64,000 bases of DNA. It comes from a virus. Taxonomy: Duplodnaviria > Heunggongvirae > Uroviricota > Caudoviricetes. Numbering within the stretch: the stretch's first letter is position 1; every line of letters begins with the position of its first letter. The notes below the pieces were generated by a model, which was given only the letters and a program-made list of their open reading frames with translations, made no database searches and was not told the DNA's origin. The stretch lies in the IMG/VR virus record IMGVR_UViG_2939521961_000009. One strand, written 5' to 3'. Made by a program: the position numbers and the translations under genes. Positions 5,597-33,325 of the stretch are shown here, piece after piece.

Positions 5597-8551
5597 TCAA
5601 ATATAGTTAAATGCGATGTTTTTGACGGTGTTTTCCGCGTTACCAGCAGCGTTAACGGTGATGGTGTGTCCATGTGAACCAATCGCAACGGAGTGCGTAT
5701 GAGCACCAATACCGACAGTATGCGCGTGTGCACCTGCAGATGCTGCTGTGCCGGACAGTGAATGGCTATGATTACCATCTGTACTGGTATTCGCTAACCA
5801 CCCCGTAGACATACCTACTGAGCCTTGTACACCCCAGGTATTTTGACCTGAGCTTGTATAACCATATTGATAAGTATCTTTAAAAACACTGGGGTTAAAT
5901 CGACGGCCATCTCTATGGCTGTGATTACCAGCTGCATTCGTGCTGCCACTTAAACTATGGGTATGCGCACCAGTGTTATTCGTGGATTTAGTGCCGTAAT
6001 CAAACGACGATGTGGTTTTCGTCCCCAAATCCGTACTGGATGCGCTGGCGCTGTGGGTATGCGATTTAATGCCGTCCTGTTCCTGAGACAATACGGCCCG
6101 ACCACTGGCAGGTTTGCCCTTAATCGTCCAGCCACGCATATCAGGGATCACGCCTGACGGATAAGCCGCTGCAAGTTTCGGGTATGCAGATTTGTCAAAA
6201 GCCTGCCCCTGCATCAGGGCATAGCCAGACGGAACGGTATCTGATGGCCACGGGATTGGTGCGCCAGGCGGATAAAACTGCTCTGATGGCGTATAGAGTG
6301 AATAAACTGTACCGTCCGTTAACCCTTCCGGCTTATTAGCAGAATATGCTGGTGACGTATGAATCGTCACGCTGGCATTACTGGTATAATCCCATTGAAT
6401 ATTTACACCAGTCGCATAATTTCCGATTGCAACGTAAATATCGTAAGTATCACCAGATGTATTAACCCAGGCAAAATTTGTAAACCCTGTCAATGTGCGC
6501 TGCCATAAAGCACCAGTAATCCCCTTCGGATTACCATTACCTGCACGTAAAACAAGTTCAGATATACCTGCCTGTTGAGGTGACCCCACGTTAAATCCAG
6601 CGCCACCAATCAACGTAATTGAAACAACAGAACTCGCCTGTGGCATGGTTACCGTTGCTAATTTGAACCAACCAGCACCACCGCTGAATGACATTGTTGT
6701 TGAGTTAAGCGTACCAATATCTTTCGGCGTCAGTGTTATATCCGCTGAAAGCGCCTTACCATTCACCTTACGGGCAGAAGGTACCCGACCATTCGCATTG
6801 TCATTAGCTGCTTTCACTGCTTTCGGTGTCGCAGCAAGCGTTTCAGATGTGCTGTTGGTTGCACTACTGAGCTGGACAATTCCTTTTTGTGCTGTCGTAG
6901 CGTCCTGTGCGGTGTATTTCCCGTTAGCCAGGTCATACGCGGCCTTAACGGCTTTTGGCGTTGCCGCCTGTGACTCGGAAGTGCTGTTAGTCGCACTGCT
7001 GAGCTGAACTATCCCTTTCTGTCCTGTCGTTGCATCCTGTGCGGTGTATTTCCCGTTAGCCAGGTCATACGCGGCCTTAACGGCTTTTGGCGTTGCCGCC
7101 TGTGACTCGGAAGTGCTGTTGGTCGCACTGCTGAGCTGTACTACCCCCTTTTTCGTCGTGCTCGCATCCTCAAGCGCCACGGCGGATGCAATATCCTCTG
7201 CACGTTTTGCCGCTGTCTCAGCGCGCGTTGCTGCGGATTCTGCCGTACTTTTGCTCTGTGCTGCCGCTGCCGCACTGCCAGCAGCCTCTGTCGCCTTCGT
7301 GGATGCCGTCGTGGCGCTGCCCCTCGCTGCTGACGCCTGTCTGGTCGCCTCATCTTTTGAAGCAGACGCAGATGATGCCGATGACGCCGCCGAACTGGCG
7401 GACGATGCGGCAGCCGTTTTTGAGGATTCTGCGCTGGTTTCCGACGCTTTCGCGTTCGTTTCGGATGTCTTCGCTGCGGAAGCAGACCTCGCTGCTGCGC
7501 TGGCCTGTTCAGTGGCTTCGCCAGCCTTCGTTGTGGCTGTTGAAGCGGATGATGCGGCGCTTTCTGCCGATTTTCCGGCGGCGGTGGCACTGACTGCTGC
7601 CTCCTCTGCCTTAATGGACGCCTCACGGGCCGATGATGCAGCTGCTGTCTCAGAGTCTGCCGCAGCTGAGGCGCTCTGTTCCGCTGCCGTTTCAGAAGAC
7701 TTAGCATTCGTCTCGGACGTTTTTGCCGCCTTCACGGAATTTCCTGCCGCCATTGCCGAGGAGGCTGCACTGCTGGCGCTTGTGGAGGCGTTCGTTTCTG
7801 ATGATTTTGCCGCCTCTTTGGAGGCCGCCGCATCTCTGGCTGAAGTGGCGGCTTCTGACGCTTTCGTCGTCGCAGTGGATGCAGAAGTGGCTGCTGATTT
7901 TTGTGACGCTGCAGCATTCGTTTCTGACGTTTTCGCGGCACCGGCACTGGTGGCCGCCGCGCTTTTTGAGGACTCTGCAGCGGCAGCACTTTTTGATGCT
8001 TCTGTGGCCTTTGTTGATGCTGTTCCTGCGCTGGAAGACGCTGACTGAGCCGACGTCGCGGCCTGCCCGGCTGATGTGCTGGCTGCACGTGCTGAGCCTG
8101 CAGCATCAGTCGCATGGGTTGCCGCCTCACGGGCTGATGTGCCGGCATCGCCGGCTGACTTCTTCGCGGCTGCCGTGTTCTGTGCCACCGCGGACGCGTT
8201 ACGCGCCACCTCTTCCACCATCAGCTCAAAACGGCGCAGTGCCTCCGGACGGGCATCATCCTCCGTCATGGCACCGAGAAAATCATTCAGCGTACCGGGT
8301 CGGGAATCTTCATACACGGTGATGGTCCCGGCATGTGACGGCGGGAATCCTTCCACCAACAGAATAACGCTGTACTGACCGTACTCAACGTCCATACTGT
8401 AACGCCCGGCTTCATCCGGATTTTCTGAGGCCAGCGTGTTCACCACCACCGTGGTGCTGTTACGTTTTGCTTTCAGCTGGATTGTGCAGTTCTGTACCGG
8501 TTTTCCTGTGCCGTCTTTCAGTACACCTGAAATCTTTACTGCCATATTCAC
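5597..8551 (-). CDS. stf: Side tail fibre protein Stf, 984 aa; last 4 native codons (VRLA) cut off by IS600, stop supplied by the IS terminus
   Basis: Long Ala/Ser/Thr-rich shaft, tandem 44-aa repeats, C-terminal HxH-rich tip region; position between lom and tfa. Confidence 0.85.
6790..7190 (-). repeat. Tandem coding repeats of about 132 bp (three 44-aa units KG(I/V)[12 protein letters not shown]...YTAQDATT) inside stf
   Basis: Near-identical DNA blocks visible at about 6811-6880, 6945-7010 and 7075-7140. Confidence 0.7.
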
Positions 8552-30231: not shown

Positions 30232-30792
30232 TTATTTTTCCGAAACGCTCGCAGGATAATAACGATAAAGGGTTGAAAGACCGATATCAAAAATAAGTGC
30301 CACCTGTCTTCGACTGACACCCCCGGCCAGTAAACGCCCGACCTGCTCGTATTGTTCCTGCGTGAGACGGCGGGGTCTGCCGCCGGTTCGTCCCCTTTCA
30401 CGGGCAGCTGCAAGACCAGCCCGTGTCCGTTCGACAATTAATTCACGCTCCATTTCTGCCAGCGCACCCATTATGTGAAAAAAGAAACGCCCCATGGGGG
30501 TTGACGTATCAATGTTGTCAGTAAGACTACGAAAATTTATCCCCTGTTGCTGTAATTCATCTGTCAGCGCAACAAGGTGGCGCATACTGCGCCCCAGCCT
30601 GTCCAGTTTCCAGACCATCAGTGTGTCACCGGGTTTTAGTTTCTTCAGTGCCCGCTTCAGTCCCGGCCGCTGTGTCGTTTTACCACTCATTTTGTCTTCA
30701 AAAATCTGCTCACATCCTGCACATTCCAGCGCATTTCTTTGTAAACCGGTGTTCTGGTCATTTGTTGATACGCGTATATAGCCAATCAGCAT
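30232..30792 (-). CDS. gin: Serine DNA invertase Gin/Hin family, 186 aa
   Basis: MLIGYIRVSTNDQ catalytic N-terminus; close to recalled Hin/Gin; adjacent to invertible tail-fibre segment. Confidence 0.9.
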   Translation of the reverse strand: MLIGYIRVSTNDQNTGLQRNALECAGCEQIFEDKMSGKTTQRPGLKRALKKLKPGDTLMVWKLDRLGRSMRHLVALTDELQQQGINFRSLTDNIDTSTPMGRFFFHIMGALAEMERELIVERTRAGLAAARERGRTGGRPRRLTQEQYEQVGRLLAGGVSRRQVALIFDIGLSTLYRYYPASVSEK

Positions 30793-30847
30793 GTATTTAC
30801 CTTCCTTAAAAAGAGGTGAAAATGCCTTTTAAAACAGATATACGGTA

Positions 30848-30873
30848 TCCCTGAAAACCTCGGTTTACGGGAA
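30848..30873. promoter_or_regulatory. gix/hix-like recombination site (TCCCTGAAAACC-TC-GGTTTACGGGAA)
   Basis: 26-bp imperfect palindrome matching the recalled 12-2-12 invertase site. Confidence 0.55.
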
Positions 30874-31218
30874 ACGGTAAATAAGGCGGCGAATGCCCTG
30901 CCATCGAACGGAACGGCTGTTGCAGCGAATAAACTCGCCACTCCAAGAAATATTAATGGTGTCCCATTTGACGGAACGCAGGATATAAATATTACATCGG
31001 GGATGACGCAGTCTGTGGCTGACTCACGTTATGTTCAAAGCATTCGAAGAGGTTCAAGGTCAACGATTGGAATGCAATATAATATTTTTGAAGTTCCTGA
31101 CGGATGCGTACTTACAGGGCTTGATGTCGCTGGTGATGGTAATGCAACGGTAACCGCATATTATCGACCTGTTCAGTTTCTGATAGATGGTTCGTGGAAA
31201 ACAGCTTCCAGCGCATAA
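30874..31218 (+). CDS. Silent alternative tail-fibre C-terminal cassette (Sv'-like); no start codon of its own
   Basis: Open frame from the gix site; first about 50 aa about 85% identical to the matching region of the expressed S gene, then a divergent tip. Confidence 0.55.
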   Translation, partial: TVNKAANALPSNGTAVAANKLATPRNINGVPFDGTQDINITSGMTQSVADSRYVQSIRRGSRSTIGMQYNIFEVPDGCVLTGLDVAGDGNATVTAYYRPVQFLIDGSWKTASSA

Positions 31219-31297
31219 AAGTGCAGTAGTTCAAAAAACAGATTATCTGAATAAATATATGATGATTTTGTCTTTTCAACAAAAACAAGGTGAAATA

Positions 31298-31819
31298 ATG
31301 GAGCTTATTAACGTAAAACGATATTACCCGGAACACAAACCCTATGGTGAGGATGTTCAGTATTTCCAGAGTGAGGACGGAAGGGATTTTTATGAATCTA
31401 TCCCGCTTTTCACAAAGAAATACAAACTCTGTATTTCGCCTGTAACGGGTATTATCTGCTCTGTTGCTGAAGATGTCTCTGCTTTATATCCGGCAGGTTT
31501 TACTGTTGTTGAAGTGGACGAACTGCCGGAAGGTGTGAATATTGACGGTAACTGGCAGTTTTCTGATGGCCTGATATCAAAGGTGCCGGTAAACTGGAAG
31601 ACGGTTGCTGAAAAGCGTCGCTCATCGCTGCTCCAGGAAGCCAACGAAACCGTGGATGACTGGAAAACAGAATTAAAACTGGACATGATTAGCGATGAAA
31701 ATAAATTACAGCTGACGCGCTGGATGGCGTATATCCGACAGCTTAAAGAAATGCACTTTAATGATATTGCCAGTGAGGGGCATTACCAGGCGATTCCCTG
31801 GCCGGAAAAACCGGAATAA
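31298..31819 (+). CDS. Tail fibre assembly protein (Mu U/U'-like), start taken at MELINVKRYY
   Basis: C-terminal ISDENKLQLTRWMAYIRQL resembles recalled Mu U. Confidence 0.75.
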   Translation: MELINVKRYYPEHKPYGEDVQYFQSEDGRDFYESIPLFTKKYKLCISPVTGIICSVAEDVSALYPAGFTVVEVDELPEGVNIDGNWQFSDGLISKVPVNWKTVAEKRRSSLLQEANETVDDWKTELKLDMISDENKLQLTRWMAYIRQLKEMHFNDIASEGHYQAIPWPEKPE

Positions 31820-31824
31820 TTCAG

Positions 31825-31846
31825 AGGGTGCATTCAGCACCCTTTT
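31825..31846. terminator. Hairpin between convergent tfa and S (AGGGTGC-ATTCA-GCACCCT then TTTT)
   Basis: Perfect 7-bp stem followed by T-run. Confidence 0.4.
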
Positions 31847-31853
31847 CTGTGGT

Positions 31854-32765
31854 TTACACTGAACTTACCGTTCTCCAGGCATTATTAATATAAATCTGAA
31901 CCGGGCGATAATAGACCCCACCGATATTGTCCGCAGACCGGGAGCCGGTTTCCTGCACGTTAATACCGGAAAGCATACAACCGGAAGGTGCGCTGTAATT
32001 CCATGATATTTCATTGCCTCCGGGTGAATGATAGCTCTGTGCTCCAAGCTGAACATTCTGTACATACCGGCCATCTGCGGTTGACTGCGTCATTCCTGAC
32101 GTGATGTTGATATCCTGCGTTCCGTCAAAAGGAACGCCATTAATATTTCTTGGGGTGGCGAGTCTGTTTGCTGCCACGGCGGTTCCACCCGATGGCAGGG
32201 CATCAGCAGCCTTATTTACCGTTTCCCGTAAACCGACGTTATCGATAAAAGCGCCTTTATCCGGAATGTCTGCGCCGTTCTGCTCCCTGCGCAGGTAACG
32301 GTTATCACCTTCGCTTTTGCTGTAAACATCCAGATTATTACGGGCGGTTCCCGCATTCTCCAGGTCGGCAAGGTTCTGATCCTTCGCCAGAGCATTAACG
32401 TCACCGGGACCAAGACTGTTTTTTGTGGCAAGCGCCCCAAGACCAAGATAACCACGGGCAAGACGCTGGGCTTCCGCACCGGCATCAGCAATTTCTTTCA
32501 GGTTGTTTTTCCGGGAAAAGGCATTCGCAGCGATAATGGCTTTAATGGACAGCGTAAGCTGGTTTAACTGCGCCTTATCCGGCTGAATACTGGCTTCAGC
32601 CAGAATATTCAGCAGTTCGGCCTGGAGAATATTCAGCCAGTCCTGACCAATCCAGCTGATACCTTTTTGTCCGTCACCTTCGGTAAACCAGGTGGTGGTA
32701 TTACTCTGCGCCGGTGCCAGCGCAGGCATATTCGCCACGCCGGAATTATTATCAACATGAAACAT
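31854..32765 (-). CDS. Tail fibre protein S (constant part above 32248, variable tip below the gix site)
   Basis: Mu-order position after the gp48-like gene; crosses the gix site at 32223-32248. Confidence 0.8.
   Translation of the reverse strand: MFHVDNNSGVANMPALAPAQSNTTTWFTEGDGQKGISWIGQDWLNILQAELLNILAEASIQPDKAQLNQLTLSIKAIIAANAFSRKNNLKEIADAGAEAQRLARGYLGLGALATKNSLGPGDVNALAKDQNLADLENAGTARNNLDVYSKSEGDNRYLRREQNGADIPDKGAFIDNVGLRETVNKAADALPSGGTAVAANRLATPRNINGVPFDGTQDINITSGMTQSTADGRYVQNVQLGAQSYHSPGGNEISWNYSAPSGCMLSGINVQETGSRSADNIGGVYYRPVQIYINNAWRTVSSV
32223..32248. promoter_or_regulatory. gix/hix-like recombination site (TTCCCGTAAACC-GA-CGTTATCGATAA), inverted relative to the site at 30848
   Basis: Left half is the exact reverse complement of the right half of the other site; central dinucleotides GA versus TC. 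Confidence 0.55.
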
Positions 32766-33325
32766 TAAATAGTCTCCTCTTCATGGCTGTTTGCATACAC
32801 GTAAATAAACGTCTGCCATGCAGGCTTATAACGGTTCAGAATACATTCCAGCGCACCGCCTTCATAAATACGCAGCGGCGTGAGAATATCATCCAGCACA
32901 TTCATATTCCGGTAGCCGGTTTCACTGTTAATCGTGACAATACTGACCCACTGTGAATCCGGTGATGGCTGAATATCTATTTCATAACCAAACTCTGCCG
33001 CAAACCGGATATAAAATTCACGGTTAAGAGAGGGTTTCATCCGGTATTTATTCCCGGCATAACGCTGACGCTCCTGAATGGTTGCGCCGGTCATATCACA
33101 TTCCGGTAACCCCAGATAACGCTCCCAGTCTTCCAGCAGCAGACGGGATGAATCAGGAAAACGTTCTGCCAGCATCTGGTTACCGGTCCAGGAAACACGC
33201 TCCGTGGAATGACTGAGGCCCAGGCACAAAGCCGCAAGAACGGATGACGGCCGCTTATCCCATGCCAGCCCGTCAGGCAGCAACTGCAACAGGGCACGCT
33301 GATGCGGGGTCAGGGTTACAGCCAT
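32765..33325 (-). CDS. Mu gp48-like baseplate/tail-fibre attachment protein
   Basis: Position between baseplate J-like gene and S; size 186 aa. Confidence 0.7.
   Translation of the reverse strand: MAVTLTPHQRALLQLLPDGLAWDKRPSSVLAALCLGLSHSTERVSWTGNQMLAERFPDSSRLLLEDWERYLGLPECDMTGATIQERQRYAGNKYRMKPSLNREFYIRFAAEFGYEIDIQPSPDSQWVSIVTINSETGYRNMNVLDDILTPLRIYEGGALECILNRYKPAWQTFIYVYANSHEEETI

Follow-up and report, generated by a model that had tools for sequence, protein, structure and literature searches.

How can an invertible tail-fibre segment that offers two alternative fibre tips operate with a single assembly-chaperone gene, when that gene lies antisense to the fibre being expressed? This question is raised by a 64,000-nucleotide stretch of DNA (the window, by which we mean the whole stretch analysed) from a virus of the Caudoviricetes recorded in IMG/VR as IMGVR_UViG_2939521961_000009. 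It contains an Sp18-type Mu-like prophage found in Shiga toxin-producing Escherichia coli (STEC)/O157, in which 1.38 kb next to a gin-like invertase gene carry the end of the tail-fibre gene S, a silent alternative end and one chaperone gene, tfa. Invertible fibre segments are textbook cases of programmed host-range variation, and the textbook layout gives every tip its own chaperone. The first-pass annotation, made from the letters alone, had therefore proposed either a reduced design in which one tip needs no chaperone, or a deleted switch. Our analysis demonstrated that the segment is an active fibre switch of the Gin/Din family and that its one-tfa layout is a stable design, not a recent deletion. 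On balance, we consider it probable that this Gin-type host-range switch uses its single Tfa to fold both tips.

The fibre gene S was taken from the open reading frame (ORF) list (303 amino acids (aa); 32765..31854, minus strand). Its constant N-terminal part, here called Sc (aa 1–177; 32235..32765, minus strand), lies outside the invertible segment; it was 46% identical to residues 1–191 of Mu S and matched PDB 5YVQ_A (E = 1.3e-48). The expressed variable C-terminus, cassette T0 (126 aa plus stop; 31854..32234, minus strand), is followed by no chaperone gene on its own strand. The silent C-terminus, cassette T1 (118 aa plus stop; 30862..31218, plus strand), has no start codon and comes into frame with Sc after inversion. 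The sole tail-fibre assembly chaperone gene, tfa (173 aa; 31298-31819, plus strand), is co-directional with the silent cassette, and its product was identified by the Caudo_TAP profile (PF02413, E = 1.9e-18; 67.3 bits against a cut-off of 22.1) and by Mu U (PDB 5YVQ_B, E = 2.3e-15). S and tfa converge, with 34 bp between their stop codons. The earlier description of an expressed S without a chaperone gene on its strand, and of a single tfa belonging to the silent cassette, was thus confirmed, and a hidden second chaperone gene of any family was excluded by the 34-bp gap together with the ORF list.

The two 26-bp gix/hix-like sites reported by the first-pass annotation were also confirmed. The left site (30848-30873, TCCCTGAAAACCTCGGTTTACGGGAA; core TC at 30860-30861) and the right site (32223-32248, TTCCCGTAAACCGACGTTATCGATAA; core GA at 32235-32236) are in inverted orientation, share the central GA/TC dinucleotide of Mu gix, and agreed at 20 and 22 of 26 positions, respectively, with the gix sequence taken from the Mu record (TTCCTGTAAACCGAGGTTTTGGATAA). 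A half-site matrix run over the ~64,000 positions of the window ranked them first and second (29.6 and 27.5; third-best position, 12.1), but because this matrix was partly trained on the window's own two sites, the comparison with Mu gix is the independent test. A third crossover site, able to flip tfa alone, was considered and rejected, as there are only two strong sites in 64 kb; a weak match at 31308 (score 11.1) falls inside tfa, where recombination would destroy the gene. The sites are embedded in an inverted repeat of 185 nt with 81% identity (left arm 30853-31037, right arm 32059-32243), which encodes the fibre stretch common to both cassettes. Over the 150 nt inward of the sites, 122 positions were identical (81%, against the roughly 85% first estimated), and the divergent tips proved longer than the earlier figure of about 60 aa, with ~72 aa in T0 and ~64 aa in T1.

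The invertase gene, gin (186 aa; 30232..30792, minus strand), encodes a serine recombinase (PF00239, E = 1.4e-51, plus HTH_7, PF02796) that is 76% identical to Mu Gin and retains the catalytic Ser9, in MLIGYIRVSTNDQ. In Din systems, a Fis-dependent recombinational enhancer acts in cis from the 5' part of the invertase gene, as in Mu gin; compared with Mu, the first 120 nt of the window gene were identical at 94 positions (78%) and nt 121–232 at 74 of 112, and Fis sites could not be located there from the sequence. The core dinucleotide was GA at both sites in nearly all relatives and AA at both sites in strain Sakai (locus L100; NC_002695, 5074600-5075000 and 5073300) and in locus L011. Since the two cores must be identical for religation, this matched change supports activity of the switch.

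To obtain the alternative state, we flipped positions 30860-32236 in silico at the central dinucleotides. Sc was fused in frame to the silent cassette and tfa came to lie behind it, giving a fibre, S', of 295 aa against the 303 aa of the present S. Five complete E. coli genomes contain the exact predicted inverted product (2601 nt) at 100.0% identity, and the 295-aa S' carries the annotation WP_032284531.1 in one genome of the inverted orientation; an in-frame fibre with tfa behind it, present exactly in sequenced genomes, speaks against a deleted switch. Among complete E. coli genomes, 182 carried the orientation of the window and 26 the inverted one, counts that reflect the consensus of each assembly and genomes that are phylogenetically non-independent. 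In strains 8479 and Z869, the segment is present twice, once in each orientation. In addition, 12 IMG/VR contigs break off inside the repeat where Sc meets the tip, which is what a mixture of reads from the two orientations would be expected to produce. Four of the five defining features of a Din system were therefore present, namely a serine recombinase, inverted sites, both orientations and in-frame fibre exchange.

Two side observations concern orientation. The second copy in strain 8479, 100% identical, lies at 101003-103603 of NZ_CP074995.1, a 166,865-bp non-chromosomal record, and the chromosomal copy is oriented the other way; transposition of the Mu-like phage into a plasmid or phage-plasmid seems to have taken place. 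The skew of 182 to 26 is towards the T0 state, with tfa antisense to the fibre, and may stem from clonal inheritance with slow switching, from unequal rates or from selection.

We next compared the segment with its relatives, comprising about 35 loci from IMG/VR and E. coli genomes. In either orientation, the order was constant: Sc, T0, a gap of 31–35 bp, the convergent tfa, a spacer of 51–121 bp, T1 and gin. Exactly one tfa was present per locus across seven T0 clusters, three T1 types (30–38% identical to one another) and 23 tfa alleles. Both cassettes and tfa were intact in nearly all loci; one (L031) has a premature stop in T0. The conservation of this layout over many diverged alleles, with both orientations found in nature, supports the part of the first-pass annotation that spoke of a reduced design. 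The T0 tip was 41% identical to the Mu S tip and 70% identical to the fibre tip of Rac-SA53, and its 12 nucleotide alleles were under purifying selection (median ratio of nonsynonymous to synonymous substitution rates, dN/dS, 0.10), indicating that it is a working protein. The 23 tfa alleles gave a median dN/dS of 0.15. These allele ratios partly reflect selection in donor phages, as tips and tfa are exchanged by recombination. Within T1 types, variation was too small for an informative dN/dS, and the T1_A tip occurred only within the Sp18-type prophage family.

The two cassettes seem to evolve differently. The T0 tips form a deep continuum of alleles (synonymous divergence, dS, above 1). Among the T1 tips there are three separate types with almost no variation, each accompanied by a spacer of its own (79, 51 or 120 bp).

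In seven loci (L014-L018, L025 and L030), one shared deletion took away gin together with the left site and most of T1. These loci are locked in the T0 state; what is left of T1 has decayed, but the convergent tfa is intact. They carry different tfa and T0 alleles, whose sequences were 81–96% identical against 95–100% for the flanking non-coding DNA, so the alleles were imported by recombination; host-range diversity in these loci seems to arise from homologous exchange and not from inversion.

A further single tfa was seen in Citrobacter braakii ATCC 51113, in a different and larger switch of a Mu-like prophage (L086); a sister locus, L049, has the classical two chaperones. In a survey of gin-linked segments for other single-tfa cases, in which the tfa profile undercounts, one apparent case, the Gin-family switch of P2-like IMG/VR contigs (L160, L152 and L173), was rejected: a Caudo_TAP gene follows one tip, but an unrelated 92-aa ORF follows the other. 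The alternative tips of this P2-like switch appear to use chaperones of different families.

To assess which chaperone a T0-type tip is normally paired with, we surveyed 64 viral loci outside the switch family in which the fibre ends in a T0-like tip (56–72% identical). All 64 carried a co-directional tfa within a few bases of the fibre stop codon, starting at most ~14 bp after it or overlapping it. For 38 of the 64, identity to the window Tfa over residues 1–85 was 68–74%; the other 26 had a Mu-U-like Tfa. Compared with the Tfa of Rac-SA53, the example that is best characterised, the window Tfa was 53% identical overall, with 75% identity in the N-domain and 35% in the C-terminal half. According to North et al. 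2019 (summary in PMC9608196), the Tfa of Mu attaches to the fibre tip through its N-domain and remains on the virion, and the Mu S tip, which is homologous to the T0 tip, was crystallised with U bound (5YVQ). On the silent side, one and the same tfa allele occurred with T1 types merely 30–38% alike, showing that tfa is not T1-specific, and across loci the combinations of tfa and tip alleles formed a mosaic, with no clear linkage of tfa to either tip. The pairing in 64 of 64 loci, the N-domain of the cognate type and the lack of T1 specificity together make it unlikely that T0 is independent of a chaperone, as the first-pass annotation had suggested for one tip, and one Tfa for both tips is the best explanation.

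Under this explanation, Gin would recombine the 26-bp sites at their matching central dinucleotide, flipping 1.38 kb and joining the constant part of S either to T0, as at present, or to T1, and the product of the single tfa would fold both tips. With the segment in the T1 state, tfa lies downstream of S', within reach of late-operon transcription. In the T0 state, it is antisense to the late operon and would have to be transcribed separately on the other strand, from a promoter either in the long spacer or just outside the left site and reading inward. From sequence, we infer both the action of Tfa on the two tips and the start of its transcript in the T0 state.

Late transcription through S is antisense to tfa in the T0 state, so expression of tfa would require its own promoter on the plus strand. 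Three indirect observations, on the spacer, on the locked loci and on published expression data, fit such a promoter. The candidate regulatory region is an A+T-rich spacer of 79 bp between the stop codon of the silent tip and the start of tfa (31219..31297, plus strand), which contains the Shine-Dalgarno sequence AAGGTG. The spacer upstream of tfa measured 51–121 bp in all Sp18-family alleles and 69 bp in the single-tfa switch of Citrobacter, against 2 bp or less in two-tfa segments (Mu, SfMu and L049); in both single-tfa families it is A+T-rich, and tfa has a Shine-Dalgarno sequence to itself. In the loci that lost gin, ~105 bp upstream of tfa are conserved next to the decayed T1 remnant. A candidate weak promoter reading inward, GTGAAA-17-TATACG, was recognised by eye just outside the segment (30816..30844, plus strand; 8/12 to consensus), and relatives whose gin is 81% identical have a promoter-like TTGTCG-18-GTTAAT at the same place beside the left site. 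Expression data exist for strain Sakai, whose reference genome has the orientation of the window: a sense-oligonucleotide array listed just two Sp18 genes, ECs4990 (tfa) and ECs4991 (silent tip), each raised 2.1-fold on entry into stationary phase (PMC2241611). Their joint rise suggests transcription beginning ahead of the silent tip, for example at the weak candidate GTGAAA-17-TATACG.

A more detailed proposal, which we advance tentatively as one possibility, is that supply compensates for orientation: a fixed promoter just outside the left gix site, or one in the spacer, would transcribe the silent cassette and tfa exactly when inversion uncouples tfa from the late operon, and a promiscuous Tfa would serve two tips and, through exchange of modules, many. 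If true, invertible host-range cassettes would have in this a general way of shedding a second chaperone, one that arose at least twice (in the Sp18 family and in Citrobacter).

Between the converging stop codons lies a G+C-rich hairpin (31823..31845; −17.0 kcal/mol on the plus strand, −14.7 kcal/mol on the minus strand). It resembles a terminator on the plus strand, where a T-run follows, and has no T-run on the minus strand. With the terminator-like form on the tfa strand only, late transcripts would stop after tfa in the T1 state; in the T0 state, they might read on towards gin. A search of 27.5–33.5 kb against Rfam returned no known RNA. As a separate, post-hoc observation, the 8-mer AAAACAGA (extended by T in the shared word) occurs four times in the 64 kb, three of them within 830 bp on the tfa strand (30831, 31235 and 31664, plus strand), and two of these, reading AAAACAGAT, are upstream of tfa in DNA that is non-coding. 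Diverged relatives have the 8-mer next to their left site, and a different spacer type contains it too; it is either a possible regulatory word or a chance repetition.

Several findings weigh against a single Tfa that folds both tips and is supplied from its own promoter. T0-type tips of ~60% identity pair with a Mu-U-like Tfa in the 26 loci mentioned above, so tip type does not strictly dictate Tfa type. A sigma-70 scan gave six sites against 4.7 expected, none of them upstream of tfa, and the by-eye promoter candidates in the three spacer types and beside the left site were all weak, GTGAAA-17-TATACG scoring below the scan threshold. The change on the Sakai array was small and comes from a single study, and could reflect cross-hybridising prophage fibre genes or a culture of mixed orientation. 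Finally, the low dN/dS of the loci without gin was rejected as proof of selection after they became locked, their alleles being imported.

These points leave room for other explanations. If the T0 fibre folded unaided or with host chaperones, and tfa served T1 tips only, the missing tfa on the T0 strand and the negative promoter scan would need no further account; the shortness of the fibre (303 aa against 504 in Mu) and the predominance of the T0 orientation (182 to 26 genomes) would also fit. We nevertheless judge this unlikely, because tfa is immediately downstream in all 64 other loci with T0-type tips, the homologous Mu tip was crystallised with U bound, the fibre-binding domain of the window Tfa is of the type paired with T0-like tips, and derivatives locked in the T0 state retain an intact tfa. 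The same survey, by implying that the T0 type of tip depends on Tfa, lends some weight to an on/off switch, in which no Tfa would be made in the T0 orientation, particles would be fibreless or poorly infectious, and inversion would toggle infectivity or split the burst. The antisense position of tfa relative to the late operon and the negative promoter scan agree with such a switch, but it would place 87% of genomes in the "off" state, T0 is under strong purifying selection (12 alleles, 0.10), and lineages without gin, although locked in the T0 state, continue to exchange T0 alleles. We regard it as a shade less likely again.

Supply in trans would resolve the antisense problem differently, with Tfa for the T0 state coming from co-resident prophages. 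STEC genomes contain many lambdoid prophages with tfa genes, so donors are plentiful, and Rac-type prophages encode a Tfa with a closely related N-domain. Infectivity would then hinge on the prophage content of the host and on co-induction, yet the design is common to many strains and is seen again in a prophage of Citrobacter; retention of tfa in locked lineages would also go unexplained, and we consider this source improbable. Least probable is a decayed remnant, that is, a two-chaperone G segment that lost one tfa and is drifting with a functionless layout. The segment is indeed smaller than the G segment of Mu (1.4 vs 3.1 kb), and T0 has a premature stop in one relative (L031), but both orientations exist at 100% identity, the site cores match and co-vary, cassettes and tfa are intact in nearly all of the ~35 loci with low dN/dS, the 34-bp gap is too small for the remnant of a second tfa, and Sakai releases Mu-like particles (PMC2669165). 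One Tfa shared by both tips remains the explanation that we prefer, and the surprise is limited to how a single, cognate chaperone placed antisense is supplied.

The surroundings of the switch are those of a Mu-like prophage. Upstream of S lie Mu-type baseplate genes, among them the gp48 homologue (33325..32765, minus strand; PF10076 Phage_Mu_Gp48, E = 2e-22); a Mu S-like constant N-terminus, which would dock on this gp48-type protein, is a feature shared with the G segment of Mu. Directly downstream of gin is an esterase-like gene (682 aa; 30132..28084, minus strand) with a SASA carbohydrate-esterase domain and a C-terminal DUF6645. It occupies about the position of com/mom in Mu and is conserved yet very divergent among relatives (45–100% identical); as a putative surface-sugar deacetylase beside the switch, its product could have a role in adsorption or in modification of the lysogen surface. 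At the right end of the prophage (~25740-26950, according to the annotation of the identical locus L002), a Com-family regulator is followed by a DNA cytosine methyltransferase, and the right end of Sakai Sp18 (ECs_4997-4998) holds com and a Mom-like modification gene. As the two right ends differ behind a common Com regulator, the modification module has been swapped.

The switch region was 100% identical in many O157:H7 and other STEC chromosomes. The Sakai Sp18 switch is collinear with that of the window (98.9% identical), with the same gene order and orientation (ECs_4989, fibre; ECs_4990, tfa; ECs_4991, silent tip; ECs_4992, invertase), and differs in its site cores, both of them AA in Sakai and GA in the window. 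Sp18 has been described as apparently intact, and an invertible host-specificity region was already noted in it (Asadulghani et al. 2009). This Mu-like prophage, which many O157 and other STEC strains carry, is able to transpose and releases particles. We found no published account of its single chaperone, of both orientations in genomes or of the supply of the chaperone; since invertibility was already reported, the single, probably shared chaperone is what is new. A switch with one chaperone would mean that Tfa can be promiscuous across tips 30–45% identical, which would be useful for engineering the host range of phages and tailocins with fewer parts. The uncoupling of chaperone expression from the fibre operon also poses a question of regulation inside an invertible element, in two independent families.

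Among other known systems, a close one is the G segment of Mu and SfMu, with which the window shares the order gp48, S, invertible segment and gin, the invertase (Gin 76%), the sites (20–22/26, same core), the Sc part (46%), and homologous tips and Tfa. As the first-pass annotation correctly stated, Mu has a chaperone for each orientation (U and U'), and SfMu likewise. The distance between the Mu gix sites is ~3.06 kb with two chaperones, compared with 1.38 kb and one chaperone in the window. U and U' each start 2 bp after the fibre, against a spacer of 79 bp, and the Mu fibre has 504 aa, against 303 aa. The inverted repeat of Mu is 34 bp, that of the window 185 nt. The window thus lacks two features of the Mu G architecture, a tfa for each tip and a tfa that abuts the fibre stop codon, an arrangement that implies co-translation of the two from the late transcript.

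In the C segment of P1 (Cin), the P segment of e14 (Pin), the Min system of p15B and the Ein system of carotovoricin Er, a serine invertase likewise swaps fibre C-termini at 26-bp sites; for Ein, such inversion is cited in PMC13195805. P1 and e14 have one chaperone per orientation. Non-invertible pairs of the Rac-SA53 type resemble the T0 side (tip 70%, Tfa 53%, N-domain 75%; the same pairing in 38 IMG/VR loci), but their tfa is co-directional, 2–14 bp after the fibre stop codon, and no invertase is present, whereas the window tfa is inverted relative to T0. A counterpart in design is the Citrobacter switch, which shares the Sc family (73% identical), a gin homologue, the 69-bp spacer upstream of tfa, and a single tfa converging on the expressed fibre of 472 aa. 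It differs in having a different, longer tfa product (229 aa), a larger segment, a T0-like tip as the tfa-linked one, and three gix-like inverted repeats (~5819-5896, 7780-7856 and 8190-8223), so that this region (5819-8223) possibly adopts more than two states, as a Min-like switch served by one chaperone gene.

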